A DNA stretch of 62,723 bases from assembly GCA_008632985.1 (NCBI GenBank), contig QPGO01000188.1:62001-124723 (forward strand), read 5' to 3'. The notes under the pieces were generated by a model. It did not search any database and was not told where the DNA came from. It saw nothing but the letters and a program-made list of their open reading frames with translations. The stretch is from Psammoneis japonica (Eukaryota). Positions 32,540 through 62,723 of this stretch are shown here, piece after piece. Both the position numbers and the translations under genes were made by a program. Positions within the stretch are counted from its first letter, which is position 1, and the number at the start of each line of letters is the position of its first letter.

Positions 32540-32852
32540 GCAACAGTGCTTTTGATCATTGGCAGCAAAGGAGGCATCACACAGCAGGACCTGGAGCAGA
32601 CAGTGGTGCAGGAGTGCAACAGTGCTTTTGGTCATTGGCCACTGGCAGCAAAGGAGGCATCACACAGCAGGGCCTGGAGCAGACAGCGGCGCAGGTGCGC
32701 AACAGTGCTTTTGGTCGTTGGCGGCAAAGGAGGCATCACACAGCAGGACCTGCTGGAACAGACAGTGGTGCAGGAGCGCAACAGTGCTTTTGGTCATTGG
32801 CAGCAAAGGAGGCATCACAAAGCAGGACCTGGAGCAGACAGCGGTGCAGGAG
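32540..32852. repeat. Tandem repeat of ~75-85-bp units (about 4 copies)
   Basis: GG[CA]GCAAAGGAGGCATCAC...GCAGGACCTGGAGCAGACAG.GGTGCAGGAG.GCAACAGTGCTTTTGGTCATT repeated. Confidence 0.9.
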
Positions 32853-33599
32853 CGGCAGGGGAGGGGGTGGTCGTGTGGGTCCTGCTGGTGTCAGGGCTTG
32901 GAGATGGAGGCAAGGTTGGTGACGCAGCAGCCATTGTTTGTGGAAATGTTGGTGGTGGTGGGGGTTGGTTGCTCTGAGGTGCTGGTGCTGGAGTTTTTGA
33001 AGGTCCGTTGGTTGGAGGTGGCGAAGGGGGCATGGCAGGACCTGGATTGGGCGGCAGCAGTGTGGGGCCTGGGAGACCCAGAGTTGGTGGAGATTGTGCA
33101 GGCAACAGTGCAGAAGAAACAGTGGGCTCAGATGCAGGGCCCAAGGCGGAAGCATTGGCCCTGGTCTCACCTTGCATCACACCGGGAGCATTGCAGGTGC
33201 AGATGACGAAGAGTCCCATTGCGGGTGCGTTGCTTGCACCGGGAGTTCAAATGACGAACTTCATGGGCAAGCCCGTCTTTTCAAAAATGATGCTCACAGC
33301 TGCACACACAGCACTGAAAGGGGTCTTTGTGTTGCATCATGGATGACAACACAGTGATCATGCTTTCGAAAGTTCTTGCTGCCACAAATGCAATTGACGC
33401 AGACAGTGCGCATGCAGTCTGGCCGCCTGCAGAGCATCACCACAGCGCGGCCGGTGAGTTTTGTGTCCACGTGTGTCGAGGTTTTCCCCCCCGACCGACC
33501 ATGTCAGTTGTTGGCGAAACAGCAACAGCACATCGGCTGGTGCAGTGAGACCACACCGCAGCAACAGCGCACTGTCATTTACTCAGTGCATTTGTCATC

Positions 33600-35232: not shown

Positions 35233-37180
35233 TTGGCGAGGTGGGTGAGAGATCAGCAATAAGTCCATTTAAAGATTGACACTTGGTGATGACAAGTTGG
35301 TCCCTCGGTTGTCTTTTTGAAACCGTTTTTTGTGAGTTGTTTCACGAACTTGTCGATGCGATTGCAGTCGAAGTGCCGCATGTCTTCCGAGAGTCAAAGC
35401 GCACCGTACGCAAGTCGGACACGAGCTCTTCCAGGATTCGTGGAGCTGTTGCTGTCGCTTTCACTGGTGGTGTCGCAGGCCCCTTGTGGAGCGCCGCTGC
35501 ATGCGGTGTGTGTGCACTGGTGCGATGGACTTGAATCTGCGCAGCATGATGAGCAGTTGTCTCGATTTGCCGCCGGATGATTGTGAGTTGATCCATCTGA
35601 CCGGCAGTTGGGCGTGCGGGTTCAACATTCAATGGGACTCAGCACCTGCCAGATGCTTTGAGACAAGCAGTGCCTGTGGCACCAGCAGTGCGGTGCACAA
35701 TCCATTTCTGTCTGTCCTGGAGACGGGTGCTGACGAGCAGCATGGTTGCCACCGCCCCCTGATGTGTGGTGGAAACTTTTCAATTTTGGCAGAGTGGGGT
35801 GAGTTTGAAAGTCTGCATGTGTGGACTCAATCCATTTTATTTTAACTGGCTGCCAGAGCTGGGGGCCAAGTTTGCCAGTCTGGAAAAAGGGGCACAAAAT
35901 CAGTCTCAAATTTGCCAAGCCAAAGTTCTTTCCTCTGACTGCACTTCATTGCAGAGAGAGAGAATCTTTTAGCACCATTGTTTGTCACCATTGGGCATCT
36001 GCTTCAACTTGAAAATGATTGCATGACAAAGAAACACAGAGGGTGGAAGAGCAGGGGTGTCAAACATTGGCATTGTGCCTCATCCCTCATCCCAAACTGT
36101 GTTGACACTTGCACCATGCAACACAAATGGGATCATGTTGGCTTCAATCATGTTTTAAATGTGCACTTTGTTCATGGAAAATGAAAACTGAGGGTGCGTG
36201 ATGACGGCAAAATCACAAGGTGGACTTGCTGCTCCATGCTGGGAGATGTGGCTGGCCTGCTTGGGTTGCAGATAAACAAGATTTCTCACCACCCCACACA
36301 ACCACGCACCTGGGACAGGAATCTCTTCTCCAGGTTTGTTGAGTCTTTTTCAAGCTCATCAGCAACAGGCAAGCGTTCTTCTGTCAAGATGACAGGCAGC
36401 TCCCCATTCCAGGGCTCTTCACACCTTCGAAAGTGGTTGGTTGCACCCTCAAAGCCAGGCCATGCAGACAAGACAACTCGACAACAGCCTGCCTTTAAAA
36501 ATGCATCAAAGGCAGGGTCAACATCTTCATGCAGCACACACTCTGTCCAGCAACTCTTCTTTCCCCAGAAATGTGGGTGAGTCAGCCAAGTCATTTGCTT
36601 CTGTTCAAATGCTTTCCAAAATGATTGATCTGAGAGACTCCATGTTGACCAAGCTTGATGGCTTCAAACTTGTTGAAGTGCTGTGCACTTGCTGGGACAG
36701 CAGTGCAGTGTTTCTTCAGTTCACCTTTTGTCAGTTGAAGGTCAACAGAGGAGGGGTTCTTCCTCCTGGCTGCAATGTCAGCCTTGGCCTCAGCCGCTGC
36801 CAGCTTCACACTTCATGCTCCTCTTTTTTGTGCTGCACACATTCGTGGACTTGCCATGTGTTTTTCCAGTCACCATTGCTGCACAGAGGGCTTGGTGTGC
36901 TCACATTTAACCATGACACAAACTGCAACATCCAAAACATCATTTGTGATCAAACCAAAGGCGCGCATGCATTGGCGCTTGTTGTCGAGTGCTGCGCTCC
37001 ACACCCATGAAGTTCCTGGGGCAAACTGGTGATTCGGCATCTCAACATGACATCAACAAGATCCTTGTCAGACCAGACATTGTTGGCCACAGCAACAGTG
37101 CCATGGACAGCCCTGTGCCATCCTCCATTTGCATCTCTGTGCCAAATGGGCATGATCAATCTTCTTGTTCTTGCCAGGCT

Positions 37181-37636
37181 GAACTTGCAACTGCTTTGCA
37201 AGTTGGCACCCATGGTGTTTGTTGCAGACCAAGCTGGAGGTGAGGCTGCTGGTGGGGTTTCTGACTTGCTCAACATGCCACCTGAGCACACCCATCAAAA
37301 GTTGCCATGCTTTGTGGGCTTGCCTGACGACATTGATGAGCTGCAAAGCTGCTTTGTTTAAAAAGAGCAACACTTCATTGGAACAAGATGAACACAGGAC
37401 TGAACAGACATTGTCTCACCTTCTCATCCAATCATGTGCTGACAAATGCACAAAGAAACAAGGGTTTGGTTGCCACTGTCTGCACTGGTTGTTTTGCAGC
37501 TGCTGCAGATCCAACAGGGGGGTTGACACTCAAGGCTCACCAGTGGGGCATGCAGCCATGCCGAGTGTTAAGAGGTGCATTGCCAGCCTTCATGCAAAAA
37601 ACAGCATGTGTCAAATGTGAAATGACCCAGCTGACC
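37181..37636 (+). pseudogene. Hypermutated duplicate of the FBPase 3' coding end plus 3' flank (source 28957-~29415)
   Basis: Collinear alignment; translates NLQLLCKLAPMVFVADQAGG...PDDIDELQSC versus NLQLLYKSAPMAFVVDQAGG...PDDIDELQSY in the gene. Confidence 0.95.
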
Positions 37637-39815
37637 ACAACTCAATCCATCTGACAGAGCAATCAAACAGATGGCTCATGACCAGATGGAGGCATGTCAC
37701 GCTGCCAGGCTGAAACCAACTCCTCATCATCATTGTTGTCGTCTCATTCAAAGCATGCTCCAGCATTTCCATGGGCTTCTTTGGGGCCAACACAAAAACA
37801 TGCCAGCCTGCATGATCCCACAGCAGCAGTGCCAAGAGCTGTTCATTTCTCTTTGCTCCAACACCGTTTTGATGGCATTTCTCCATGTGCTCTCTCAGCT
37901 GACAAAAGTTGCCAAGTGTCGCCACTTTTCAGGCCTTTGAGGCACATGTTGAGTGGCTGGGGGGGGGGGGGGTTGATGTGCGATCAGACACAAGATGAGC
38001 AAGAGAGGAAGCTGGTCCATGGGTGGGAAGCAATGGCGCTGGTGGTCTGTCAACAGGAGAGGCGGCAATGGCCATGTTTGTTTCTCATGCTCATTTGAAG
38101 GCATTTCATTGGAAACAAAATGACCAGGCATCATCCACCACAGCAGCCACACATTTCATTGCATCCATTGATTCAGTTGCACACTTGACTCCATTGCAGC
38201 ACTTGCAACATTCTCATCAGACCAACGAAGCTCCACAAACTTAAAACAGCACTGCTCTTTAAATGGAGTGCCTGTCATGATGTCTGAGCTCAAAGTCATT
38301 TTGATGTGAGAACAATGCGTTGCAGTGGAATCTTCAAAAAGCAGCGGCATTGCCCCCCAAGTGAGCCCTTGCTGCAGTGTCTTGTCCAACTTAAAAACCA
38401 TTTCGACCTGAGAACAACTTGTTGCAGAATCTTCCTTTGAGCAATGTGTTTTGTTGCTTGACAAACCAACAAAACTTCCTCAAGCAAAACAGCCCACCAA
38501 AGCAATTGTGCAGACCTGCAACTTTGCACCGCATGGATTTGTGCGGAGTGTGTGAGTGCATGTGCAAATTGCTGTGTTCCTCCTGAGCTGCACTTGCAAA
38601 CAACTTGCATCTTCTCATCACTGGAGTCACATGGATGCCAATTGTCTGTTGTTTTAAAGTTGTCCCAAGAGCTGCTGGCTGCTGGGGCATCGGGCTGGCT
38701 TCATTGGTGCCTTGGTTTTGTGTTTTTCCTCTGGGAAAATCAAAGTCTTTGAAATGTCATGACAGAAAGTGTCTCAAGCTGAGCTCTGGGTGTGTGCCAA
38801 AGGTGCTGACTCCAACAGTTGCTTGCATTGTTGCACTCAAAATTCATCCTGTGAACAAGTCAATGTCTTTCTGGCGTGGCCTTGTGACGCGTCCTTGCCT
38901 TCTCAAATGGCGCGCACATGGCAACCAAAATGATGCCAGTGGAGCGGCGCCTTGTGCCCTGCTGCACTGGCTTGTCAAAGAACCACAAATGACATGATCA
39001 ACAAAATGTTGCATCCACCTGTCGGTCCACAGTCATTGTGCGCTTTCAACTCCCGAGCTGGGTTGCCAATTGGAGAACAACTTGTGCTGGGCCGGACATT
39101 TGAGTGAAGTGCAAGAAGAGCAAAGTTGATTCCCTGGCCAATTGTCCACCTCAGCTGCACTCAATTTCACTCAGTCTCTTTGAACAAATTGCAGCCACTG
39201 GGCAGATGCAGAGTCAACAACCATGAGGCAGATTTTGTTGGTGGAGTGCACAGAGCTGTGCGAAGCTGCAAATCGGCCTTCTTGGGGGCTCAAAACAACC
39301 CTGCAATTGTTTCAATTTATTTCACACAACCCTCCCTTTGGCGACATTGCCACCAGAGCATTGCGTTGCTCAAATCCTGTTTCTCAAATGAGGGTCGACA
39401 ATCCCTGCCAGCCGCAAAGGCAAACGGCGAGGCAAGGGTTGGCAGCGACACCTGGGAGATCTTAAAAAATTCACTTGTTTGCCCAACAACTTTGCTTCCT
39501 CACATTCTTTTACATTCATGACGTGATGTCTGGCTGTCTTGACTTTTGTCTGCATCATTCACGTTCATCCTGTGTCCTTTTTTCCATCATCCACTGCCTC
39601 TTGCAGACCGCACCTCTCTCGAATTATTCATGACATTGAAGATGAGGGAGAGGGACAGACTTTCTCGCCCCGCATTTCAATTTCAGCGATGACATAAAAT
39701 TCAACATGATGCCGATACCAGATGATAGCCGTGCGTAGTAGAGCGAAGTGAGCAGAGCAGTGTGAGGTGCGAGTGCGGCTTTCGATGGTGTACTTCTCCT
39801 TCTAGTTACCCTACA

Positions 39816-42632: not shown

Positions 42633-42849
42633 GTTGTTTTAGAGAAAATATTATGATGAAGTAGTGTTGAGATAAACGCACAACGCAACAACATCATTGT
42701 GAAGAAGATCATACAGCAATGTGGGGGCGCACTGCCGGCATGCTGTACGAGCTCGAATTTAATGTTTTTGATAACCCGGATCGTGACAATCGTGACAAAA
42801 CTGCCCATTTTTACCCAAGTTTTACCCTGTGTAATAAACAACACGAGTC

Positions 42850-44240
42850 ATTGACCACTCAGTGGTTGGTGATTGCAGACTTTTTCGTGTTGGTCAGTCG
42901 GTCCGGCAGTTGGGCAGTCCGTCCGAATTTTAGAGTGCGTCCCTCGGATTTTGGAGCGGCACGGGTTGTTCAGTGCAAACGAGTTTTGCTCGGATTCGTG
43001 TGGAGTGATCATTGAGGACATTGGAGGTCGTGGGGACATCCCAAAAAATTGACAAATTCCCCATGATGGGTGCATGGAACAGTTTTTCAGGAGAGCTCAA
43101 AAGTGCTGCAAAGCTGGGGTTGCCGGCGTGGCATGTTGAAAAATGCGCTGAGCTTTGAACAAAGAAGACAGCTTGTGTCGTGAATTCTGCGTGAAACAGT
43201 CAAATTGAAGAAACATGTCAAACAACAAGTGGTTTGTGCAATGCACCATTTCAGTGGCAAATTGGACAAAAAAGTGTGTCCGTGCACCTTGCCACAGTCC
43301 CAAAAATGGAGTGAGCTGTCAAACACAGCTGTCATCTGCATCACCTGTGCGCTGACCACACACCACCCTGCCCCCCTGCCGCTGCAACACCAGCTGCAGC
43401 AGCAGGGCCCTGCTTGTGCACATGCAAGCAGTGCAGCATGCAACAGCACGCACCCACACTCACAAAGAAAAACAAATGTCAGGCAGCTGTGCAGTCCGTT
43501 GGTGTTTGTTGTGTTTTTCGGTTGTGACTTGTGTCCAATTGTTTGCGGTGGGCATGACCGTGTGAGGCAGAATGACTTTGTGTTCATGTTGGGTGCATGT
43601 GAAGGCCAGTGTGCAATGGCCTCATTGCACACGAACATTGTGGGGATTGCTTCCTGTGGCTTGAATTGTGAAACATGGATCTGGGCAAGGAGAAGGCAAA
43701 GGAGTCTAAGAGACTGGCAACAAGAAAACTGTGGAAAAAAAGAAAGGAGCTGAAGAATGCAGAGAACGTCAGAGGAAGGAATTGGAAGACCAACATGCAG
43801 ACAGGTTGCAATGCAAGGTGGTGCAGAAAGTGGATCGGCAGAGCAAGGAGTCAGAGGACCAACACATCGAGAAAGGTTGCAATGCGAGGCAGCACAGAAA
43901 GTGGATCGGCGGAGCAAGGAGTCAGAGGACCAACATCGAAAGAGGTTGCAGTGCAATGCGGCACAGAAAGTGGATTGGCAGAGCAAGGAGTTGGAGGACC
44001 AACATCAAGAGAGGTTGCAATGCAAGGCTGTGCAGAAAGTGGGTTGGCAGGGGGCAAGGAGTCAAAGGACCAATGTGAGGAGAGGCTGCAATGCGAGGCA
44101 GTGCAGAAAGCAGACTGGCAGAGCAAGGAGTCAGAGGACCAACATGAGAAGAGGCTGCAATGCAAGGCAGTGCAGAAAGCAGACTGGTGGACATGTGCCA
44201 CAGAATCATCCAGGAGGCATGTTGGCCATTCTCAATGAAG
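42850..44240. other. TpA-depleted island D
   Basis: Near-absence of TA between two normal genes. Confidence 0.8.
43775..44190. repeat. Tandem repeat of ~60-63-bp units (about 6-7 copies)
   Basis: GAGGTTGCAATGC[AG]AGGC.GTGCAGAAAG.GGA.[CT]GGCAGAGCAAGGAGTCAGAGGACCAACATC repeated. Confidence 0.92.
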
Positions 44241-44538
44241 AGAAGTAAAGACGCAACACTCCAACAAAGTGCTGCACTCTCGATGTAACGCACGTCCCAT
44301 ATAACCGTGACAAGATGGGACAAAAGGTGACAGACTTGGGAATGTGTGCGTGTGTGATTGCATGCAATGGAAAATCATGTGTTTTGTGTGAGTCGAAACA
44401 TGGCAAACTCGAGCTGAGTGTACAGCATAAAAGCGTCCTGCAGCTGCTGCAAGCACATATCATGACCATTCTCTCTAGAAAGAATACAACAACCCCAGCT
44501 TTGATATATTTTTATATAGTCTACACAATCACACTTTT

Positions 44539-47975: not shown

Positions 47976-49187
47976 TCAGAGTTCGGGTGCCCAAGGCGCA
48001 ACAGCATGACGAATGTTTCCTTCGGCTTGACGAAGCCGTCGGACCCATTTTCCACTTGGCAGACCAACGTACTCGGCAATCTTTCGCTTGTAGATAAGAG
48101 AAGTATCAGGTCCTTGATTGAGAAGGCTCAACGGTGTTCCTGTGGATTCAAAAGTTTTCGTAGAGAGCATGCTGCCAAGGATGCACTCCAAAAAACTGTC
48201 GTACAATGAAAGATGCAGCCTCACAATATCAAGAATATGTTTTATCATCTCGTCATCTCCCTCAATGTGGTATTTCGACATCCTTCTTGCTGCAAACTCA
48301 CGTGACGCTGCAAACAGAGCAACGAGCACCCGTACAGTGCGTGCATACTTTGTAAACACATGCTTGTTGAACACGAAGTCCAAAACCTTCTGGTTCTCCT
48401 TACAATTATCGACAACGTCAAGCATGAAATCTTCATCCCGAAGCCATTTCTTCGATATATGTAACAAGTCTCCATATAACGTAGCACTTGCTAGACAGAT
48501 TTCACGATCCTCTGCCCATTGCCAACGTCGGCCGTTACCTAGTACGTAGGACGGAAAACCGAGACCAGCCTTCATCCAGGCTCTGGCAAACTCCAAGTTA
48601 TCCCAAAGAGAGGGCTCGATCTGTTTTTGGACTGGAAACATAATTTCTGAATCACCACCAAAACGCCCAAGAGCAGGTAGTGCCTCCATAACTAGAGGTA
48701 AGTAAGCCAGTTGAAGTTCATGGCTCATGAAACCGAGTATGCGAACATTTTCGTGGAGAACCCTCACCCCATGATTCAGGACCTCCGCTGGACGCCAAAG
48801 CAGCAATCACAACGTTTTCGTTTACCATCAAATTATACGGTAGATTGAAGCAAGAAACCTGCTTGCATCCCGCGAATGCGAATGCCTTTTGCATTTGATA
48901 TTTTGGACTTTCTGGGTCATCCAAACAGCGAACTGCAGGAAAAGCGTGAAAGGTAGCGCATACATCCTCAATGTCATTCTTCCATTCAGGCTCGAGATCA
49001 TTAAAATTGATTTTGCGTTCGCCAATGGAAGACAAGACAGATTCACGGGTCTCCTTCTCACTTCTAGTAGAGTTGGGACTACTGAGTTATGGATTGCCTC
49101 CTCGAGTTCTGCCACGCGACGACGGAGTCTGTCGTTTTCTTGTTCCAGTTCTGCAATGCGCTGTTTGTCGAGGCACGATTCTGCCAT
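47976..49187 (-). CDS. Hypothetical protein (N-terminal coiled coil, DUF4116-like WxxDxxF repeats), split by frameshifts
   Basis: IAELEQENDRLRRRVAELE; repeats LWDNLEF, WAEDREI, WLRDEDFMLDVV; normal composition. Confidence 0.55.
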
Positions 49188-49713
49188 TTTCAATCTCTTG
49201 TTGTTGGGTGCAATGATGACAAGACGATGGGGAGAAAGGAATTGAAAGATTTTGAAGAGAAAAGAGAATGTGTCATTGTCATTTATTCGCGATCATTTTG
49301 TCCGAAGTTCTGTCCCCCATGCGTCTTGGGTGTTTGCCATTTAGTCTGCTGTGACAATTTCCCGGTTCATGATCAGTGTCATGATTGCCTCTCTGCTCAC
49401 TGCGAAGACAAAACATTCCCAAATGATGCACACAATGACCACCCAGTGCTTTTGTTGTTGCAAATGCCTTGGGCAGACATTGGGACCTTGCTGGGTGATT
49501 GCGAGGCCACCTTTTGGCTCCTCTTGTGTTGGCTTGCAGCAGGAGTGCCAGAGAGCTCAACGATGTTGTGACCCGCACTTTCCTTGTGTGGTGCAATCAA
49601 AGCATTGCCAATGATGCCCACCTGCTGATGGCACACATTGTCATTGCCTCAACTTGACAAAATGTGCCAGTTTGACTTTTTCATGTGATGCCTCTCAGCA
49701 GTGCTTTCCCAAC

Positions 49714-49989
49714 TGACAGGATTTGAACAGGATTTGGGTGTGCGCGAAATGCCGCACGCTGTTTAGTTTACCGCGCACAGTTTTGTGTGCTTTAGTTCCA
49801 CGCGTTCGCATGCAATGCAGTTTGCTTTCGAGCCACAAGGCTCACAAGAATGACAACAGTGGCCCGATTGTGCCGACTTGCACGTCTTTCGGCTCCTGCA
49901 GCGGTCTCTGAGCGGAGACTCATCTGCCATTTAGACAGCAGCAAGGAGTCATTGTTTGAATTCTTGCCATTTGCCTTCAATTTCTGTCA
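49714..49989 (+). repeat. 5' LTR
   Basis: Ungapped 276-bp match to 56021-56296; TG...CA termini. Confidence 0.97.
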
Positions 49990-50926
49990 GATTGACAGTC
50001 TTGCTCATTGTCAACCCATTGAGCAACCGCCATCGTCGTCGTTGATTCACCGACGATGCTGTTTCAATTCTGCGTGGACCTCCGTGTGTGTTCTACACAC
50101 ATCGGCAAGTCTGCGCGCGTTCAATGCCAGGCATCGGCAGGAATTTAACGTCACCGTCAAGTCTCCTTGCCGCTGGACATCTGGATTGATTGTGCTGCCT
50201 TTGATTGCTGAAGACATGCATCAACGGTCATGTCCAAGTCCATCCTTGATCCTCATCCCTTGATGCACCCATTCATCGGTCAACGGTCAAGAACCCTGCA
50301 CATTCAAGTGTCTTCGTCGCTGAAGACATGTGCACATGTGCACATCTTCACAGCCAAGAACTTGTGCCCACTCTTCGGACTGCGGTTTTGCTTCCACTCT
50401 ACAAGCACACCGAGTCCATTGTGTCTGATCTGCCCCGGACTGCTGGTGCTCTGCAGTTCCGCTGGGTCCACGAGGACAACTGTGAGAGCAAGCAGCCATG
50501 ATTGCAGCCTGCGTTGGGGCGGGGGTGTTTTCCCGAGTTTGTTTGTTCGTCCACAGCGCCTGGCACCTGCGTCAACTGGCCAGCCTGATCGGGAAATCCA
50601 ACCGACACAAAACAAGAACGGTTCGGGGGTCTTGTCCACCTCCAGTCAGCTCACCTGCAGGGGTTTACAACCCGCTGCTCCGCTCGCAAGCAACCCAAAG
50701 CACCGCCAGCTGCGGGTTCAGACGTGCCGGCACAACTCTGCGGACCGGATGGGAAGTTTAGCACTTGACAACAAACGGGATGGCACAGCCCGGCAACTTC
50801 TGATTTTAAGGTAGTTCAAGATTTCAAGTCAAGTCCATTTCAAGTCAAGTCTGTTCTCACCCAAGTTTCAAGTCTGCCTTTGCTTCCCAACAAGAATTGC
50901 TTGTCCCGACACCACTTTTTGTCTGC

Positions 50927-53498
50927 CATGGTTCTCACTCGTCAGCAACAAACCGATGGTTTCGAGCACGTTGTTGGAACCGTGCTTGCCCAAGGTGCTG
51001 GGAGCCCTCTTCGTTTGGCTTTGACCCAAGACGGCACGGACTCGCATCAGGAACTGTTCACATTCATGCCGTCCCAAATCGACTCGCTTGAGTGCGACAA
51101 CGGCACCAATGTGATCCCTTTGCCCCGCGGTTATAAGAACATGCCAGCAGCTCTAATTAGTCTGTACATTGTCAAAGCACACGAAGGTCTCGACGTTGCC
51201 AATGACTCCTTGTTGTTCACGCATGACGAGTTCCTTGCCTGCCGCCTCAGCCCCGACTGCATGTCTTCTGTGTCCGCAGGCAGCTCACCCCTCACACCTC
51301 CGCATGTCACCAACCCGACCAAGGCACGCGACCCGGTGCGAGACTTCAAGCGAGGCATCAAGCGTGACCCCACCGCTTTCACGGCTCTCAAATCCGACAA
51401 GCAGTGGCACACTTGGCACACCTCACTTGTGGCACAAGCCCGTGCCCAAGACGTCGAGTGCATTCTAGACTCGTCGTACAAACTGACCAGCCCTGAAGAC
51501 AAACTGCTCTTTGCTGAACAGCAAAAGCACATGTTCACCGTCTTCGAACGCATCCTTCTCACCGACAAGGGCAAGGCTCTCATTCGCGAAAATGTGGGGT
51601 CTTCTGATGCCCAGACCGTCTGCTGTGCCTTGTCTGAGCATGCGCTCGCCTCCACCCGCGCATCTGTCAAGTCCTCCACCTTGCTCACGCACCTTGCCAC
51701 CGCACGTCTTGGTGATGGTGCTTGGAAAGGTCCGACCCACAGGTTCATCCTTCATTGGCAAGATCAGTTGCGCAAGTGCAAGGCACTCATCCCGGCCAGT
51801 GACCACTTCTCTGAAGGACAGAAGCGCGTCATGCTCGAGAATGCCGTGCACCCTGTCGAGGAACTCCGTGCTGTCAAGAGCCAAGCTGATCAGCATCGTA
51901 CGCAGAGTGGCAAGAGCCTCACATGCGATCAATGCTGTGGCTTGCTCCTCTCCGCGGCGGCTCAATGCGACAGTGCGTTTCAACCCAAGACGACACCTCG
52001 AGCTCCCCGACGTGCCACACACGCACACAACGTCTGCTCCGAGGAACCGTCCGACGATGTGTTCTACGACATTGACAGCGACATTGACGTCCTTCAGGCC
52101 AATGCTGCCTGCACCCGTGGTCCCAGCCTCACTGGTGACCAATGGAAACGTCTCCCTCCCGACCACCAACGGATTTGGGATTTGTTGCCCCATTCCTCCA
52201 AGGCGATCATCCTCGAGCATTCTCGTCCACCTCCCCGCAACCCGCGAGCCAGCAACTGCCATGAGTCCATTACGGCCAACCTTCACGACCAACGCCTTGG
52301 GAGTGACGGTGATGTCAACTTGTCCAACACGACTCCTGCTGACTCTGGTGACTCCGCTCCAAATGTGGGTGCCACTTCGGATGATCCCATCCTGGCACAC
52401 CTCACCAAGCGCAAGCCCCTGCCACCCGGTGATCTGCAACGTCTGTTGTCTCCCAACCAAGCCCCAAATGCTGGTCGATCGGGGCCATCCACCGCTCCCT
52501 CTACCCCGCCAGCTCCTGCCGATGACACAGAACTTAACGGCCGCACTTGCCGCCGCGTTGACAACCACAATGTCATTTGCTCTGCCTCTGCTCATCGCTC
52601 CACACGCACTGGTGCTCCAGTCGATCGTGGGGCCAACGGTGGCATTGCTGGTGATGACGTTCGCGTCATTGCACGCACCTCTCGCCAAGTCGACGTTCAG
52701 GGCATTGACGACCATCAATTGGTGGACATCCCCATTGTCACCGCTGGTGCCGTCATTGAGACCCAGTGTGGTCCCGTCATCGCCATCCTCCATCAGTGTG
52801 CATGCACGGGCAAGGGCAAGACCATTCATTCCTGCGGCCAGCTCGAATGGCACAAACAGGATGTCAACGATCGCTCTGTCAAGGTGCCCAACGGCCTGCA
52901 ACGCATTGCCACTCCTGATGGCCATGTCACCCCCATTGACATCAAGGGCGGCCTGCCTTGTGTTGCCATGCAACCTCACACTGACACCGTTCATGCCGAC
53001 ACCCCGGCCGTCGACTCTGGTTGCACCAGCGCCCAACTGTTTGTTGGCACCGAGTCCACCGTCACTGACGTCTGCGGCACCAAGACGGACAAAGAGTTTG
53101 TCAACACACTCGAGGATCAGATCCATGAGCGTGGTGCCCCATCCAAACTCATTGGCAACCGTGCTCAAGTTGAGATCAGCAACAAGGTGCTTGGGATTCT
53201 ACGAGCCCTCTTCATCTCCAGCTGGCAAAGTGAGCCTCACCAGCAACACCAAAACTTTGCTGAGCGTCGATGCCAGACCGTGAAGTGCATGGCAAACACT
53301 GTCATGGATCGTTTCGGTTCGCCTGCCCACACATGGCTGCTGGTGCTCATGTGCGTGTGCTTCATGCTCAACCACACAGCGTCCCCACGTCTCCACTGGC
53401 GCACGCCCCTTGAGACTCTCACTGGCTCCACCCCGGACATCAGCCCATTGCTTCGCTTTCACTGGTGGGAACCCGTGTGCTTCCACCTTGATGACTAA
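50927..53498 (+). pseudogene. Copia gag-protease-integrase (5' part of the polyprotein), with internal deletion
   Basis: DFKRGIKRD gag motif; protease VDRGANGG; integrase core TDTV(H)ADTPA...SEPHQQHQNFAERR; Tyr->Cys/His substitutions. Confidence 0.9.
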
Positions 53499-56073
53499 TT
53501 GGCCGTCCGAATCCCGTGAGTTGCGTGGACGCTTTGTTGGCATTGCTGAGCACGTCGGCCACCAGATGACCTTCAAGATTCTCTCTGACGAGACTCAGAA
53601 GATCCTCTGCCGGTCCAACGTACGATCCGCCACCACCGATCCTGCCGTTCGAAACCTGCGTCTTGATCCTCCTGATGGGGAGCCACCTGAACCCATCATC
53701 AAATCTCGCCATGACGACAACCCCGTCAATTCTCCTGATGGGGAGATCAGGACACCCAAGATGCCAGTTTTTGATCCGCAAGACATCATCGGATGCACCT
53801 TCCTCATGCAGCCACAAGAGGACGGACAACGCCACAGAGCTCGCATCGTCAGAGCCGTCGAAGACCACGAATGGAAAGTGAACGGCAACCCCGAGCTCAC
53901 CAAGTTCGTCTGCTCTGTCAACAACGACGAATGCGAGGAAGTCCTTGCCTGCAACGACATCATGAATCACATTGAGCAAGAAGACGAAGACACTGCTGTT
54001 TGGAAATTTCGACGCATCGTGTCACATGAAGGGCCTCTGAAGCCTCATGACCCAACCTGGAAAGGCTCAAGCTACAACATTGTGCTTGAATGGGAAAGTG
54101 GGGAGATCACGTCCGAGCCTCTCGCCATCATCACCAAGGACGACCCCGTCACCTGTGCCATCTATGCACGAGAGAATGGACTTCTCGACACTGATGGCTG
54201 GAAGCGGTTCCGCACCATCGCGAGGCGCCAGAAGAAGCTGTTTCGCATGGCCAACCAAGCCAAGCTTCGCTCCTTCCGCACTGCACCTCGCTGCAAGTGC
54301 GGATGCGAAGTTCCCCAGAACTGCAAACACGCCATGTCACTGGACGAACGCAATGGCAACCGCAAATGGGGAGACGCAACTAATCTCGAGATGGACCAAC
54401 TCGGGGAATACGAAGTCTTCCATGACTGCGGGCCATTTGAGTCTTCCACTCCTCCTGCGGGACACAAGAAGATCCGAGTGCACCTGGTGTGCAATGTGAA
54501 ACATGACTGTTGCCACAAGGCACGACTCACAGCCGATGGGCACCTCACGGACGTGCCCATCGACAGTGTCTGCTCCGGAGCAGTCTCCCTCCATGGCCTT
54601 CGGCTGATGATTTTCCTGGCCGAACTCAACGAGTTGGAGACATGGGCCACTGACATTGGCAATGCCCACCTTGAAGCCACCACCAAGGAGAAGCTCTACA
54701 TTGTGGCCGGACCCGAATTTGGCAAACTCGAAGGACACATCCTTGTCATCCACAAGGCCCTGCATGGACTGCGCAGCTCCGGTCTCCACTGGCATGAGCG
54801 CTTCGCCGACTGCCTGCGAGCTGAAGGCTTCTTCCCCTGCCGCGCCGAACCCAACATTTGGATGTGCAGGAACGGCGACCACTGTGAACACATTGCCGTT
54901 TGTGTGGATGACCTCGCCATTGCCATGAAGGACCCTCAATCTTTCATCGATGCTCTCACGGAAAAGCACAAGTTCAAGCTCAAGGGTGCGGGACCCATTG
55001 AGTTCCATCTGGGTTGCGACTTTTCCCAAGATCCCGACGGCACCTTGTGCCTGTCTCCGCGCAAGTGCATCGAGCGCATGGTCGACAGCTGCACCCGACT
55101 GTTTGGGGAGAAACCTGCCACCAATGCCCTGTCACCTCTGGAGAAGGGTGACCACCCCGAACTGGACACTTCCGAACTGCTGGAGCCCGATGGCATTCAC
55201 AAGTTCCAGTCTCTTGTTGGTTCACTCCAATGGGCAGTGTCCCTTGGTCGAATTGACATTGCCACGGCCATCATGTCACTCTCTAGCTTCCGAGCTGCGC
55301 CCCGTCAAGGCCACTTGGATCGTGCCAAACGCGTCTGTGGGTGCCTCTCCAAGATGCGACACGGCGCTCTCCGCGTTCGCACGGAAGAGCCCGACTGTTC
55401 GGATCTCCCTGCTCCGGCCTGTGAATGGATGCATTCCGTGTATGGCGAAGCAGAAGAGATGATCCCAAAGGATGCTCCACCGCCCCTTGGCAAGTTCGTC
55501 ACTGCCACCCACTGCGTCGATGCAAACTTGTGCCATTGCATGCTCACCGGACGCTCTGTCATGGGAATGCTCCACTTCCTCAACAAATTCCTGGCTGATT
55601 GGTTCTCCAAGAAGCAAGCCACCGTGGAGACTGCGACCTGCGGGTCTGAATTTGTTGCCGCAAGGACTTGTGTCGAGCAGATCATCGACCTGCGCATCAC
55701 CCTGCGCTGCCTTGGCATCCCGATCCGCAATGTCAGTTGCATGTTCGGTGACAACAAGTCAGTTGTAGACAGTGCCACCATCCCGCACTCCAAGTTGCAC
55801 AAGCGACACACCGCACTGTCGTTCCACCGTGTGCATGAGGCAATTGCCTCTGGTCACCTTGAGCTCCATTTCATCGAAGGCTCCCGCAACCCTGCTGACA
55901 TTCTCAGCAAGCATTGGGGTTGCTCCCAAATCTGGGACCTTCTCCGCCCCCTCATGTTCTGGAACTTCATTCCATCCGAAGTCGAATCTGTTTCTGTGGC
56001 TCCTCAAGCAAACTGGGGAGTGACAGGATTTGAGCAGGATTTGGGTGCGCGCGAAATGTCGTGCACTGTTTAG
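53490..56073 (+). pseudogene. Copia reverse transcriptase-RNase H (3' part of the polyprotein), reading through into the 3' LTR
   Basis: HKARL, DIGNA(H)L, KAL(H)GLRSSG, AV(C)VDDL, (C)VDANL, TAT(C)GSEF, FGDNKS, NPADILSK. Confidence 0.92.
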
Positions 56074-56296
56074 TTTGCCGCGCACAGTTTTGTGTGCTTC
56101 AGTTCCGCGCATTCGCGCGCAATGCAGTTTGCTTTCGAGCCACAAGGCTCACAAGAATGACAACAGCAGCCCGATTGTGCCGACTTGCACGTCTTTCGGC
56201 TCCTGTGATGGTCTCTGAGCAGAGACTCATCTGCTGTTTAGACAGCAGTGAGGAGTTGTTGTTTGAATTCTTGCCATTTGCCTTCAACTTCTGTCA
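56021..56296 (+). repeat. 3' LTR
   Basis: Matches the 5' LTR; preceded by a purine tract. Confidence 0.97.
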
Positions 56297-56839
56297 CTGA
56301 CAACTGCTGCACATGGGCCAGTTGTGAGAGCGTGTCGAAACAGCTGGCTTGTGCTTTGCAGCTTTGGGTTTTTTGTGCTGCTTTTTTGCTGCTTGTTTTG
56401 CATTTTTTAAATTGAGTTTGATTTTGACTTTCTTCTGCTGCACCTGTGTGGCCAAGTTGCCGCTGCCTGTCGACTCAGCATTTTTCTTGTTTTTCATGCT
56501 TCCAAGTTGCACGCCGCTCTTGTCTGTGCTGTGTTTTTGGCACTCCAGCTGCGCACACTTTCCACACACACACCACAACAGTGCACCCTCTCCTCCAACA
56601 CAGAAAATCAAGAGTGCATTGTTGTGACATGCATGTCTTCTGTGTGTTTTGGCTCCAATCGACAAACAACCGCTGCGGCGTTCTTGACCGGATTTGCTCA
56701 CCCCTTTGCCCGATGAAGCTGACCTGGATCTCTCATGTTCAACAACAATGACATCACAATTGCAGTGGTGTGGAATGACTTGCCTGTGGCTTCAACATGG
56801 AGTTGTTCAAGTTGAGGCCAAAAAGCTTGGTTGTGTGTC

Positions 56840-57920
56840 TTGCACTTGTCTTGCACACAAATCTCTCAAACACCTCACACATGTTCTGCGTTGTGGTTTC
56901 ATGCACAGAGATCTTGCAAGCACCTCACATTGTCTCATGTGCACAGCTCCTGCACACCTCACATGCACCTCTTTCACATGCCTTGCAAAAACACCTCATG
57001 CTGCTCTCCTTGCGCACAGGTGGCAAACACCACCTTGCACACATCTTGCACACACAGCACGCGCACATCTTTGCACAGAGTTCTTGCACAGCGCAGCTCC
57101 TGTGCACACCTTGTGCACATCTTGCACACATCTTGCAAACACCTTGCAAACACCTTGCACACAACTCACACATCTTGCACAAATCTCAAAACCACCTCAC
57201 ACACATCTTGCGCACATTTCAAACATTTTGCACACATGTCACACACATCATGTGCACAGATCTCTCAAATGTCTTGCACACAGCTTGGCACAAATCCTGC
57301 AAACACCTTGCACACATCTTGCAAACACACCTCACACACAATTTCCAAACACCTTGCAAACACATCACACACACACACACACACACACAAACACGCATTT
57401 GCACAGCTGTCAAGTGTTTTGCACACATGATGAACACAGCACATCTGTGCACAGATCTTGCAAGCACCTTGCCACAACTTCTGCAAACCTGGCACACATC
57501 TTGCACACATTTCATGCTCATCTTGCACAACCATCCCACAACCAGCAGCACCTTGCAAATGTCTTGCAAACACCTCACACACAATTTGTGCACACCTCCC
57601 ATGCACCTCTTGAACATTTTGCAAACACCTTGTGCACACTTTGCACACATCTCACAAACAGCACCTCACACTCAAATCCAAACATCTTGCACACATTTCA
57701 CACATGTTGTGCACACACCTGACACGCATCTTCTTGCAAACACCTCACATGCACTTTGCGGGCATTTGCAAAAACCTCTCACACATCACACAGCCATCTT
57801 GCACACTTTTCAAACATTGTGTGCATGCTGATCATGCACACCTCTGCACAGATCTTGCAAACACCTTGCGCATGTCTTGTGCACAACTCCTGCACACCTT
57901 GCAAATGTTGCACACATTTT
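56840..57920. repeat. Degenerate low-complexity satellite (CACATCTTGCA / AACACCTTGCA / CACACA units)
   Basis: Dozens of ~11-12-bp units; no TA. Confidence 0.9.
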
Positions 57921-58929
57921 GCTCCCACCTCGCATGTGCCACATGCCTTGCGGCTTGTCCCAGACTTGGGCGGCACACATGTGCCCCTTTTTGCACAACA
58001 GAATGTGTTCAGTGCACTGTTCAACATCAACTGCATTCAACTGCAATGACTGCACTGGCGGCTTTTGAGCAAAACAAACAAATGAAGTCCAAGCCAACTG
58101 GCGGGCTTTTTCATCTTGTTGAAAATTGAATGAGGACATTGCAAGGACACCAGCATTTCATGCAGTCTGTGTCATGAGCAACAACAGTGAAAATGCATGC
58201 CCAGTCTGTTGGCGACAGCAACTGAACCTCATTTTGCTCACATTTTGCCTTCAAGAACTGTTTCTTTTCCATTGCCATGTGTGTCTCCTCCACAGCATCA
58301 ACTGGCACAAGTGCACCAGTTTTGTGTGCCAACAGATCAGCGAAACAGGGTCCAAAGTTGGTGCCATTGTGTGGGCCAAGCCTTGCTTCTTCTCATGTCT
58401 GCCAAAACTTGTCAACCAACAAATGTTTTGTTCAATCTGTTGAGATTGTTTTCACTGGCATGTGTTGACAAAAGAGCATTTGTGTCATTGCAAAGACTTC
58501 ATTTGCATGCAAGAATGTCAATTTGTGTCTTTCTCAACACATGAATGTGACCACAAATTGCTCGTTGGAAAACCAAGCTCTCATCTTGTGGTGCCATTTG
58601 GCCATCAATGACTGAGTCTAGCATCCTCATTTTGGATGCATGTGGGTGCACACACAAGAGCTTTCTGAACATGCCCACAGCAACACATTTGAAAATTGCC
58701 ATGTTTCAACTGTTGAAAATTGCACCGCAAATTTGGGCCAAGTGTTTTCATGCAAAAGGGGTCATTTTGTGTGTGTGAGCACACCCAAGTCTGGAGCAAG
58801 TCTTGCACAAACATCCCACACACACCTTGCAAACACCTCACACACATTTTTGCACATCTCACAAACAGCACCTTGTGCACATGTTGACCACATTTCTGGA
58901 ATCCTGTGCCCCGCAGTGTTTTGCTTTTT

Positions 58930-59330
58930 GCATCTTGCAGCCAGTTGTTGGGCGAATCCTGCAAACTGCAGCTGTTGCATCTGACAGCTTTTGGGCAAAT
59001 CCTGCACCCCACAGCATTCTGCACCTTGCAGTTTTTGGGCAAATCCTGCAATCCACAGCTTTGCACACCGCACAGAGTTTTTGAGCAAATCCTGTGTGGC
59101 TTTTTGCACATCACAGTCATTGGGCAACTCCTGCAAACCTCAGCTTTTTGCACCTTGCACACCCTGCAACATCTTGCACCTTGCTGTTTTTGGGCAAGTC
59201 CTGCACCCCACAGCTTTTTGAACTGTGCAGCTTTTGGGCAAATCCGCACCCCAAAGCTTTTTGCACCTTGCAGTTTTTGGGCAAATCCTGTGCCCCACAG
59301 CTTTGCACCCCCCCCCCCCCCCTTGCTTTC
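58930..59330. repeat. Degenerate tandem repeat (TTTTGGGCAAATCCTGCACCCCACAGC...TGCACCTTGCAG)
   Basis: About 7 visible copies. Confidence 0.85.
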
Positions 59331-59399
59331 AAAGCACTCAACATGCAAACAACACCATTGAATCCAATGCCCCCAAATTGTCTCTCGCATGCATCTTCT

Positions 59400-60460
59400 A
59401 AAAACAACACACACACGCCTTGCAAACACCTCACAAACATTTTGTGCACACGTCAATGACAGCACCTGCACGTGCATTGCTCACATGTCTTGCACTTTTT
59501 TCAAAAATGATTTGCACACACACATCTTGCAAAAAACACCTTGCATGCACACCACACACACATGTTGCACATGTGTCATGCGCGTGTTGCAAACATCTCA
59601 CGAACACACAGATCTTGCAAGCTGTTTGCACGTGCGTCTCTTGCGCATGGCTCCTGCGCACCTTGCACACATTTTCCACACACATCATGCACTCATGCAC
59701 AAACATCCCACACACACCTTGCAAACACACCACACACTCTTCACAAACAGCATCTCACACACGTGTCACTCACATCTCCTTCGCACCTTTCAAACATTTT
59801 GTGCACATTGTCTTGCACACATCTTGCAAACATTTTGCACACATTTCACACACTTGTTGTGCGCGCATGTGCACATCTTGCAAACACCTCTCACACACCT
59901 CACACACAATTTGCAAACACCTTGCAAACATTGCAAAAACTGCACCTTGCAAACTTCTTGCCCACAAACATCCTGCACACTTTTCAAACATTTTGTGCAC
60001 ATCTCACAAACACCTCACAAATTGTTTCACACACATCTCACACAAATCATCTTGCAAACACCTTGCACATGTCTTGCACACCACATCTGGTGCACATCTT
60101 GCAAACACCTCACACACATTTTGTGAACATCTTGCCAACTCTCACGCACCTTTCGAACATTTTGCACACATGTTGCAGACACCTCACACATGTCTTGCGC
60201 ACAGCTCCCACACATGTTGTGCACATCTTGCACATGTTTTGCACACATCTGGCACACATCTTGCAAAAAACCTCACACGCATCTCGCTCTCAACTTTCAA
60301 ATGCCTCTGACATGTGTCTCTCTTGTGCAGCTCCTGCAAACCATGTGCACATCCTTGCACACATCTTGTGCACATCTCACACACATCTTGCACACATTTT
60401 GCAATCACCTTTCCCTGCACACCTTGTGCGCATCTTGCAAACACCTTGCACACTTCTTGT
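59400..60460. repeat. Second block of the CACATCTTGCA/AACACCTTGCA satellite
   Basis: Same units as 56840-57920. Confidence 0.9.
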
Positions 60461-62723
60461 GTGTGCCAGGCCCTGGTTTGTGTTGGCAGCTTCCGGCAGC
60501 ATTGTCATCTTCAGCACACTTTTTCCTGCATTCGGTGTTTTTTGTGCTGATTTGTGTGATGGTGATGTGCCCATTGTTGCCAAACTGACAAGCCATTGGG
60601 CCTGCAGCTTGCTGCCTGTGTCATTTTGCAACATCAAAGGGTGCAACAATGCAGCTTGCACTTTGTGCCAAAATCATTTGAAAATGTCATGTTGGCCCTG
60701 ATCAATTTTTGCTTGTGGCAAAGCCAAAACATGCACGCCACCCTGCAAAAGAACTCTGGAACAATGAATTTGTGCAGAAGCAGCGCCACAGGGCCCCAGT
60801 GGAAATTCCAAGAAAGTCTGGAATGTCGCAATTTTTTGGCATTCCTGGTGCTGATTCTGCACTGACTTTTGTGCAGTTTCTCAACATTTCAGACTTTTTT
60901 GGCATTTGTGCTGCTTCTGCACAAACTTGATGTTCCAAAGTTTTTCATGGAGCATGCAAAGGTGGGTGGACAACACCAACAACTGTGCACAGAAACTCAG
61001 CTGATGAGACATGATCCCACCCACAGCTCCTTTGCAACAATTTTCTGGCAGCTGCCTGCCAGCGTGCACAGACGTTTGCTGTGCAGCAGCTCTCTGTTGC
61101 AAAGACATTCCTGGCCACTGTCCAATGAGGAGATCTTTCCACCAGCGCTGTTGTTGTTGCACATGCCTTGCTCAGACTGGATGACTGAGGCAACTTGTTC
61201 CAAACTCAGGTGCAAAAACACATGAAAAAAAAGCCCATTTTTGCATGAAACACATGGTCTGATGAACTTGTGGTGCAACGTGGAGGCATGGGCACATTCA
61301 AAAATGTCTTGCGCACACCCAAGTTGTCATTTCTTGAGCATTGATTTGGTGTTTTCTCAGCTCCAAACGGCAATTTGAGAGGCATGGCTGTTTTTTTTTG
61401 TTCTTGTTGGTTTTGCAGACATGCAGTGCTGCCAAGGTTTTCTTTCAATTGACAGCACTCTGTTCTGGTGCTGCAGACACTCAACCAACTGCTTGTGCAC
61501 ACCCACAATTCTGCTGCCTTGGCTTCATGGCTGCACCCTCTGCATGTTTTTCCACACAAGCTCTGGTGCAGATGTTGCCTTTCTTTGATGCTGTGTGCTG
61601 ACAACAGCTGTTGCCTGCCTGTTCAGACCTGCTCTTTTGTTGGCGTGCCTTTGTTCTGGCGTGATCATCGGCAATCTTGTGCAGTGAAAAACGACTGGCG
61701 TCAAGCCCTTTTGGTTTGATTGCTCAGCACTCTTCTTGGCATTTTTTGTTCTTGCATGCAAAGTTTCCACACAAGTTTCAGCACAATTCCATGCATTCTG
61801 CAAGTCATTTCAGATGGACGATGCCTCAAACCACCAACTGCTCTCTCTTTCCACACCTCTCAAGTGTCAATGACCTCCCTTCTCCCTGTTGTCTGCCCAA
61901 GTTTCCCATGTTGTGTGGCGAACAATCTTCCATTGTTGCAATTTCAGAAGTTTGAAGACAAGACCAACTCAGCATGTGTTGGCCATTCATCCATGTGCCA
62001 ACAAATCTGCGCAAGTTTCAGCACATTTTCCACACATCTCAAAGGTCATTTTGGAAAATTGACCTGCCAAACTGCTGACTTTGGTCCATGCCTCTCCAGT
62101 GTCAACAACTCCCCTTCTTCCCATTGTCCAATTGAGCTCTCCATTCTGTGCTGTGAACAATTCTCTGTCATTGCTGCCCCCAGAAATGTGAATTTGAGCC
62201 CAGCTCAGCATGAGTTGGAGGTCAATTTGTGCCCCATTCCTTCTCATGTTGAAACTCTTCCAGACCTGTTTTTTGCCTTTGCCGCCAAACCCAATCCCAG
62301 GAAGAAAGCTTGGCTGAAGTGTTGGGCACTTTTCTTTTGAAGTCTTGTTGTGCCAGCCCATTTTTGTTGTTTTCAGCTGTTTCTGGTGGGCCTCACAGCC
62401 TTGTCGCATCAATCTTGACCAACTGTCATGCATCCCTGCACATCACGTGATGCACTGGGGGCGCGGGTTGGCTTGTTGCTGGAGTTGCAGGGCAGAAGCA
62501 TGGCAGCACTTCAAACACAGAATTTGGGTTTTGTTTTGCTTGCGCGTGCCCTTTTCATGGAAACACCATGCCAAGTGGGTGATGATGGCTGGGCATTTTT
62601 GGCAGTTTGCTGTCTCTGTTGCAAATGTCATCTGAAGCTCTCTGCAAGATGTGTGGCAATGGCAGCCTTGGCCATTCTGATTTTCCTGATGAGAAGCTCT
62701 GCTCCAGCAATGTGCCTCAACCC

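Follow-up and report, generated by a model that had tools for sequence, protein, structure and literature searches.

A 62,723-nucleotide window of contig QPGO01000188.1 (Psammoneis japonica, assembly GCA_008632985.1) was analysed, and all positions given below are counted from its first letter. It contains, between two putative copies of a 5-bp target site duplication (TSD; outer limits 49709 and 56301), what is by its sequence features a dead copy of a Ty1/copia long terminal repeat (LTR) retrotransposon, and this copy has probably been rewritten in place, after its insertion, by two transition processes that are each bound to a dinucleotide context. The LTRs of a retroelement are identical at integration, and those of this copy would subsequently have been rewritten in the chromosome by two processes acting on transposon and repeat chromatin. 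The first of them turns TpA into TpG or CpA (A:T to G:C, on either strand) and is near saturation in the window copy, while the second turns CpG into TpG or CpA, which is the expected outcome of cytosine methylation, and proceeds about 7 times more slowly per site. Under these two processes, a CA/TG doublet between the LTRs would correspond to a double hit, in which both LTRs were struck at the same ancestral palindromic step, one of them on one strand and the other on the opposite one, and the differences of the type CG versus TG/CA would correspond to CpG decay. The signature matches the TpA-only hypermutation of Bigelowiella natans, the sole description of such a process that was found (Mettrop et al., bioRxiv 10.64898/2026.01.13.699255).

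The evidence starts with the LTR pair itself. A repeat search, followed by MAFFT alignment and a script, reveals one direct-repeat pair in the window, which consists of the 5' LTR (49714-49989) and the 3' LTR (56021-56296), both read on the plus strand. Further copies of the LTR within the window were found neither by blastn nor by a transition-blind scan of the purine/pyrimidine-collapsed sequence, and a degenerate LTR pattern of 31 letters, run against metagenomes, gave 0 matches. Each LTR has 276 nt, starts with TG and ends with CA, and the two align without gaps at 90.6% identity; the observed/expected ratios (o/e) of TpA and CpG are 0.24 and 0.93 in the 5' LTR and 0.13 and 0.90 in the 3' LTR, respectively. 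The LTRs differ at 26 of the 276 positions, and all 26 differences are transitions, with 0 indels (P = 2.6e-5 under a 2:1 transition bias). Nine pairs of differences are adjacent, where random placement would produce 2.36 (P = 2e-4, 100,000 permutations). In terms of context, there are six CA/TG doublets (LTR positions 42-43, 147-148, 186-187, 215-216, 229-230 and 237-238), two TA-versus-TG/CA differences (57 and 80) and eight CG-versus-TG/CA differences (28, 45, 87, 91, 97, 98, 189 and 201), so that 22 of the 26 fall on CG, TA, CA or TG steps. The original prediction had described an ungapped pair of 276-bp LTRs with about 26 differences, all of them transitions, including six CA/TG doublets and two TA-versus-TG/CA differences, and this description is accurate on re-alignment; its itemisation is right for the doublets and the TA differences and had omitted the eight CG-versus-TG/CA differences and the four that lie in neither context. 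The superimposed CpG decay (8 of the 26 differences) and the domain-wide erasure of TA had escaped it. The warning that LTR divergence overstates the age of the element holds as well, as the raw divergence is 9.4%, compared with 1.4% outside CG and TA contexts, and LTR dating is thus inflated about 6.5-fold for this copy.

The direction and the relative rates of the two changes can be read from the coding part of the element. Alignment columns were selected if tyrosine was present in 80% or more of 30 homologous polyproteins, and three out-of-frame overlap columns of open frame B (described below) were dropped. In the resulting 38 columns, the window copy has Tyr in 6, Cys in 22, His in 7, Trp in 1 and Phe in 2. 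All the Cys and His codons at these former Tyr columns are TGY or CAY, and the catalytic YVDD motif has become CVDD. TA has been lost at 29 of the 38 conserved Tyr codons (76%), and the overall composition is shifted in the same manner, with 0.44-0.54% Tyr against 3.8% in the homologues and 3.2-4.7% Cys against 0.9%. Conserved arginine columns provide the corresponding figure for CpG: 43 CGN codons are kept and 10 of 53 have changed to Cys, His or Gln. In the LTRs, 12 CpG sites are CG in both copies and 8 in one of the two (CG/x), which amounts to a loss of 8 out of 32 CpG copies. The per-copy loss is therefore 19-25% for CpG versus 76% for TA, with a per-site rate ratio of 6.9, and TA has been lost about 7 times faster than CG in the window copy.

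Other members of the family point in the same direction. They were compared through the contigs of the one public sample, from a single study, in which the stretch occurs (run X1), 13,108 of which could be placed at 80% likeness or more, and the family is very abundant in this sample. The best-supported 40 of the 549 rows of family variants include 35 inside the element. In 20 of these 35, the window copy has TG or CA where other copies have TA, and one more is ambiguous; six have TG or CA in the window copy and CG elsewhere, three show the reverse for CG, two are transitions in other contexts and three involve transversions. At 49811, the other copies carry C (CG). A TA-poor ancestral family was rejected as the source of the pattern, both for the Tyr content of the homologues (3.8% versus 0.44-0.54%) and for the TA that the other copies show, and biased gene conversion was rejected because it would be expected to lack TpA specificity. 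At 49814 and 49818, as well as at the matching positions of the 3' LTR, both LTRs have CA, while most other copies have CG (49814) or TA (49818). The few family rows that fall in the LTRs are in keeping with both processes. The states at 49814 and 49818 may result from parallel double hits in the same direction, of the hidden kind that the two-process model predicts, or may have been inherited from the source copy, in which case partly mutated copies would still be able to transpose.

The process has also reached DNA of host origin. A stretch of 462 bp is present twice on the plus strand, in copies that lie 8.2 kb apart and are 79.7% identical. The gene-side copy (28957-29418) comprises the 3' end of a fructose-1,6-bisphosphatase (FBPase) exon and 254 bp past the stop codon, whereas the second copy (37181-37637) is located inside a TA-depleted block (29301-39700). 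The gene-side copy has kept 25 TA, of which 14 are situated past the stop codon, so its integrity is not just a matter of protein selection. Opposite these 25 TA, the distal copy has TG at 11 and CA at 12; one TA has become TT and none is kept. Out of 18 gene-side CG, 12 are now TG or CA, and only one TA of the distal copy lies opposite a TG of the gene copy. As this host fragment, within a depleted block, has had 23 of 25 TA replaced by TG and CA in nearly equal numbers, chromosomal DNA is the target, and both of its strands have been hit.

The dinucleotide profile of the whole window shows where this action is confined. Large parts of it have hardly any TpA, and in them TpG and CpA reach o/e values of 1.5-2.3 and CpG is reduced. 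Segmentation delimits five TA-depleted blocks (1-9800, 21601-22900, 29301-39700, 42801-44400 and 49001-62700, with edges accurate to about 100-400 bp), which together account for 36.8 of the 62.7 kb and contain 130 TA versus 2303 expected. In these blocks, TpA o/e is 0.04-0.10 and CpG o/e is 0.2-0.6, and in the two large old blocks the counts of TG and CA agree to within 1-2%. The gene blocks between them (EF-1 gamma, PP2C, channel, FBPase, kinase, UBC and C2) have a TpA o/e of 0.4-0.7 and a CpG o/e near 1. The retrotransposon, with 36 TA versus 321 expected from base composition, lies at the margin of a depleted domain of 13.7 kb (49001-62700; 46 TA versus 811 expected), which extends to the end of the window and whose left edge is found near 49100, about 600 bp beyond the 5' LTR. 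On this left side, the depletion at 49100-49713 adjoins the apparent 5' end of a minus-strand gene (open reading frame 47976-48806, with frames on to about 49190), and CpG o/e remains near 0.95 up to 49400; the depletion of this flank may have spread from the element or may belong to an older repeat.

Surviving and changed sites indicate a preference beyond the TA step. Among the TA that survive in the depleted blocks, TTAA is enriched 10-fold and CTAA/TTAG 3.9-fold, ATAT is absent, and ATAC and ATAG occur at 0.15-0.17 of the average; the six TA kept in the LTRs all lie in TTTA. A 3' pyrimidine stands beside the changed A in 17 of 20 inferred hits (P = 0.003). The bias of the survivors and the excess of 3' pyrimidines together define R-T-A-Y (purine-T-A-pyrimidine) as the preferred site. 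At former Tyr codons, Cys prevails over His by 22:7 (P = 0.008), that is, A-to-G changes are more frequent on the sense strand. Given the 3'-pyrimidine preference and the fact that Tyr codons are TAY, this excess is largely expected, and a residual strand effect may contribute to it. The ratio of Cys to His does not depend significantly on the base that precedes the Tyr codon (9:4 versus 13:3, P = 0.67), and a polar strand gradient along the element was rejected, since His and Cys outcomes are interspersed. A side observation concerns the orientation of the doublets, as CA is found in six of the seven in the 5' LTR plus the left TSD copy and TG in six of the seven in the 3' LTR plus the right one (Fisher P = 0.03); this bias, together with the 22 Cys versus 7 His, may reflect a strand effect, a position effect or chance.

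The rates measured elsewhere in the same copy bear on the origin of the doublets. A homogeneous CpG-only model predicts 0.67 doublets versus the six seen (P = 7e-5), and its joint fit to the three classes of sites (12 CG/CG, 8 CG/x and 6 CA/TG) gives a chi-square of 7.3 (P = 0.007). For a TA origin with p = 0.76 and 10 visible sites, 0.8 unchanged sites, 5.1 single changes and 4.1 doublets are expected, and 2, 2 and 6, respectively, are observed. A two-source model with codon-informed rates attributes 4.9-5.2 of the six doublets to TA, with a probability of at most 0.001 that none derives from it. Since the loss of TA is near saturation and that of CpG is not, most doublets (about five of the six) should descend from TA, and they probably do, on the strength of these rates from elsewhere in the same copy. 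Which letters stood at any single doublet, or at the TSD, is a matter of inference. The idea that the doublets had been TA is favoured for about five of them with the codon-informed rates. As for the TSD, the 5-mers CCAAC (49709-49713) and CTGAC (56297-56301) are present as claimed; they are identical at three of five positions and agree in purine/pyrimidine class at all five (chance 1 in 32), and the two mismatches form a CA/TG doublet. CTAAC, the ancestor that had been proposed, would lie in one of the best-protected TA contexts of the window, and it is estimated to be about as likely as CCGAC. Among 15 of the 68 joints listed from run X1, none spans the element in the manner of an empty site, which has no bearing on the existence of such a site. 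In the same run, a contig of 706 nt covers the left flank (49004-49709) with 11 differences, including a CA/TG doublet (49280-49281) and a TA/TG difference (49285), and ends at the base with which the TSD begins (49709); another contig, of 548 nt, matches from 56297 (to 56815) and has 29 extra letters that are unplaced. Both may represent the other allele or an unoccupied site.

The pattern could also be attributed to CpG decay alone, the doublets and the TSD (from CCGAC) having arisen by opposite-strand deamination of methylated CG and the TA poverty of the element being unrelated. CpG decay has left traces, among them the eight unambiguous CG-versus-TG/CA differences between the LTRs, the CG that other copies have at 49811 and 49814, the low CpG o/e (0.2-0.6) of the depleted blocks and tandem units elsewhere in the window with CG, CA and TG at one column; moreover, flat priors assign 11-17% to the case of zero TA-derived doublets. 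As the sole process, it is nevertheless unlikely, because the opposite-strand double hits exceed its expectation by the margin given above, because coding CpG loss in the same copy is just 10 of 53, and because the two TA-versus-TG/CA differences and the 29 lost Tyr codons require a second process anyway. Several points do weigh against the favoured two-process reading. With flat rate priors, a mean of 3.1-3.5 of the six doublets come from TA, which leaves the split undetermined, and strong heterogeneity of rates among CpG sites could raise the number of doublets expected from CpG decay. Only one of the 40 best-supported family rows touches a doublet, at 49861, and it is ambiguous, so an outgroup letter has been read at 0 of the 6 doublets; the family comparison itself comes from one sample, probably that behind the window assembly. 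In addition, five of the six doublets require one hit beside a 3' purine, which is the disfavoured context, and a TSD that had been CTAAC would be of the CTAA/TTAG type, a protected context whose share among surviving TA is raised 3.9-fold. Four LTR differences (positions 14, 39, 188 and 268) lie outside both CG and TA contexts, and the enzyme, the modified bases and the chromatin marks of the mechanism proposed below are predicted links.

The timing and the chemistry of the changes have alternatives of their own. If an ADAR- or APOBEC-like enzyme had edited the genomic RNA or the single-stranded cDNA before integration, the LTR differences would be relics of reverse transcription, and the deaminase-type transitions with their 5' neighbour rule, as well as the excess of Cys over His at former Tyr codons, would find a ready explanation. 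RNA editing, however, would yield identical LTRs, and a hand tally that takes C/G as ancestral assigns 14 of the derived states to the 5' LTR and 12 to the 3' LTR; the TA depletion extends into non-element DNA on both sides, the host duplicate has mutated evenly (11 TG and 12 CA), and the sense-strand excess is largely explained by the 3'-pyrimidine preference, with no significant split by the preceding base. This origin is accordingly very improbable. The post-insertion, chromosomal origin that had been proposed is instead supported, as both LTRs are derived in both directions, the depletion enters DNA outside the element and the host duplicate is mutated on both strands. It is also improbable, although somewhat less so, that the LTRs stem from two insertions, through a recombinant element or gene conversion, and that their differences are those between copies rather than the clock of one integration. 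The great abundance of the family (13,108 contigs at 80% likeness or more in run X1), the differing flanking 5-mers and the states at 49814 and 49818, which are common to both LTRs and unlike most other copies, would suit this scenario; against it stand the agreement of the 5-mers in purine/pyrimidine class at all five positions, with mismatches that form a CA/TG doublet, and the lack of any indel in 276 bp, and even if it were true, the differences would still represent in-place hypermutation of two copies after insertion. Finally, the chemistry may be another one, in which the T of TpA is modified (for example to 5-hydroxymethyluracil) and mis-repaired or mis-copied to C, or in which an error-prone polymerase acts at TA during the repair of silenced DNA. 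TpA being palindromic, T-to-C on one strand is equivalent to A-to-G on the other. In dinoflagellate DNA, TpA is the preferred location of 5-hydroxymethyluracil, and WA sites (W being A or T) are those at which polymerase eta makes errors; the latter also makes transversions at A, and the outcomes here are near-pure transitions (23 of 25 TA to TG/CA, with one TT, in the duplicate, and all 26 differences in the LTRs). The requirement for a 5' T is in keeping with adenosine deaminases, an argument made in the Bigelowiella preprint that does not amount to a test, and a chemistry of this other kind remains a minority prospect.

The evidence thus points to double-stranded chromosomal DNA, after insertion, as the substrate. 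The preferred chemistry, which is put forward tentatively, would be the enzymatic deamination of adenine to inosine in DNA, with a 5' T needed and a 3' pyrimidine favoured (R-T-A-Y); inosine would then be copied as G. An adenine deaminase acting on DNA would fit the pure A:T to G:C outcome, the strict requirement for a 5' T and the action on both strands. What attracts such a deaminase would be silenced and methylated chromatin, and not duplication as such, as suggested by the duplicate that is untouched in a gene block, its counterpart that is mutated in a repeat block and the CpG decay, a proxy for methylation, on the same DNA. It is quite conceivable, if short of probable, that diatom-like algae run a chromatin-directed, R-T-A-Y-specific, adenine-deaminating genome defence shared with a chlorarachniophyte, which would be an old and widespread 'reverse RIP' of the SAR group (stramenopiles, alveolates and rhizarians), RIP being the repeat-induced point mutation of fungi. 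If this defence reading is true, the process would outpace the decay of 5-methylcytosine about 7-fold, Tyr codons and TAA/TAG stops would be erased soon after insertion, and the LTR pair would constitute a dated snapshot of the process.

The closest known system is that of Bigelowiella natans, in which mutation-accumulation lines revealed that integrated foreign DNA, namely that of giant viruses and virophages, undergoes de novo hypermutation from A:T to G:C at TpA only and on both strands (bioRxiv 10.64898/2026.01.13.699255). The authors of that preprint favour an adenine deaminase and name an ADAT2-like candidate, and they report that coding sequences poor in TpA are enriched in reverse-transcriptase and DDE domains. 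Both systems share the conversion of TpA to TpG or CpA, depending on the strand, by almost pure A:T to G:C transitions, the restriction of the effect to foreign or silent DNA within an otherwise normal genome, and a long-term depletion of TpA with enrichment of CpA and TpG. In the window, likewise, the outcome concerns TpA, both strands are hit, and repeat DNA is affected next to genes that are normal. The differences are also clear: Bigelowiella natans is a chlorarachniophyte, whereas the host here is a diatom-like stramenopile; an LTR retrotransposon, satellites and a duplicated host fragment are the targets in the window; TA has been erased there almost completely (TpA o/e 0.04-0.10), compared with 0.45 in the viral region of Bigelowiella natans; and CpG decay takes place alongside. 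Moreover, the footprint is here read from a sequence, while the mutations there were followed in real time. An R-T-A-Y flank preference is seen in the window. Full-text searches returned no description of TpA erasure in diatoms or transposons beyond this preprint, and the single article in which diatoms and hypermutation come together has no relation to it.

A likeness to RIP lies in the repeat- or transposon-directed, dinucleotide-specific and transitions-only character of the mutations. RIP, known from Neurospora and other ascomycetes, is a repeat-directed process that produces dinucleotide-specific transitions, destroys coding capacity and reaches a few hundred flanking bases; it makes TpA from CpA/TpG and mutates both copies of a duplication. 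Here, unlike in RIP, TpA is removed and A:T rather than C:G pairs are changed, with only one TA of the distal duplicate opposite a TG of the gene copy, and the gene-side duplicate is unmutated. The Discussion of the Bigelowiella preprint likewise draws a comparison with RIP (bioRxiv 10.64898/2026.01.13.699255). Methylation-driven CpG decay explains 8 of the 26 LTR differences, the 10 of 53 Arg codons (CGN) changed to Cys, His or Gln and the CpG o/e of 0.2-0.6 in old blocks, and it agrees with the CG of other copies at 49811 and 49814, methylation itself being presumed; it is unable to remove TA or to turn Tyr codons into Cys or His codons, and its per-site rate in the window copy is about 7 times lower. 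Editing by APOBEC3 or ADAR affects one strand of RNA or cDNA, so that both LTRs and the host flanks stay alike. Deaminase-type transitions with a nearest-neighbour rule, recorded in copies of retroelements, are common to these editors and to the present case, in which, however, changes occur on both strands and set the LTRs apart from each other, and they extend to the flanks and to a duplicate that is not a retroelement. A 5'-U preference of ADAR is cited in the Bigelowiella preprint (bioRxiv 10.64898/2026.01.13.699255).

These results have several implications. Timing after insertion is what a defence-like mutator acting in place would predict, and an accident of editing while the element replicates would not account for it. 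The rates (TA about 7 times CpG), the R-T-A-Y preference and the edges of the domains make the search for an enzyme and for a targeting signal concrete, and if the system is the same as that of Bigelowiella natans, a single report would be extended to a second major algal lineage. Age estimates that apply one rate to LTRs or to a consensus would be about 6.5-fold too old here; a 2025 preprint derives the ages of diatom LTR elements from their identity, with a single background rate. Dead elements will be annotated by gene callers as if their proteins were intact, as their open frames are an artefact of missing TAA and TAG, and homology searches are weakened by the replacement of Tyr by Cys or His.

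Regarding the anatomy of the element, all of whose features are on the plus strand, the 5' LTR is followed by an internal region (49990-56020) with a TpA o/e of 0.10 and a CpG o/e of 0.79. Open frame A (50769-53498, 909 codons) is collinear with residues 1-1018 of an 1859-aa metagenomic copia polyprotein and has no Pfam match of its own, and residues 58-900 of open frame B (53284-56073, 929 codons) are collinear with residues 992-1850 of the same polyprotein. As both frames correspond to successive parts of one polyprotein, one frame change would lie near 53455-53498, the zone in which their alignments to the polyprotein overlap; at 53497, certain other family members are longer than the window copy by two letters. 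The reverse-transcriptase domain, Pfam RVT_2 (PF07727), extends over 54454-55083 (E 1e-20; 74.9 bits versus a cut-off of 31.6) and includes the catalytic motif at 54901-54912, where the window copy has CVDD (with a TGT codon) and the homologues YVDD. A purine run, GGGGAG, which resembles a polypurine tract and was read directly in the sequence, abuts the 3' LTR (56015-56020), and a script places the right putative TSD copy at 56297-56301. Frame B runs on into the 3' LTR because TAA and TAG stops are gone: the element (49714-56296) has 18 TAA plus TAG versus 112 TGA on the sense strand and 27 versus 155 on the other. For the same reason, frames of 200-900 codons stay open on both strands and seem intact. 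Profile matches to gag, protease or integrase were not found by Pfam in three frames, even at E up to 5.

Searches retrieved 699 longer homologous proteins at E up to 0.001, with PF07727 in at least 120 of them, which are all those listed, and the best relatives are single metagenome polyproteins of about 1,850-1,900 residues that are 60-71% identical. Diatom Ty1/copia retrotransposons have been described as 'CoDi' elements (Maumus et al. 2009, PMC2806351), with which the window element shares a copia-type reverse transcriptase (RVT_2), short LTRs and a diatom-like host; its relatives are single polyproteins of ~1,900 aa, and its likeness to the CoDi lineages is one of general features only. 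A term search of that article gave no match to RIP, dinucleotide or deamination. The window comes from a eukaryotic host with densely spaced genes, and the best named relatives of its EF-1 gamma belong to the diatoms Attheya, Rhizosolenia, Striatella and Epithemia and to Triparma, at 63-70% identity.

Additional observations concern the remaining depleted DNA. Blocks 1-9800 and 29301-39700, with a TpA o/e of 0.04 and 0.06 and a CpG o/e of 0.30 and 0.40, respectively, contain long frames that are open on both strands and have no Pfam match, such as that at 2562-4715 (717 codons), and they are probably older, fully mutated mobile elements. To the right of the retrotransposon, 56900-62723 is occupied by a degenerate satellite with an 11-nt unit, CACACCTTGCA, and variants thereof, organised in higher-order repeats of 43-44 nt; it includes a C run near 59305-59320, and its TpA o/e is 0.00-0.04 and its CpG o/e about 0.2. 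Four more tandem arrays are located at 4-776, 22617-22874, 32540-32854 and 43770-44179, with periods of 31/85/116/201/318, 7, 79-83 and 69/140, respectively. Used as an internal consensus, the tandem arrays, which have few units, provide three columns with a mixture of CA and TG in which neither TA nor CG survives and several columns with CG/CA or CG/TG. In the array at 4-776, units with CG, CA and TG in one column form a CpG-derived triple.

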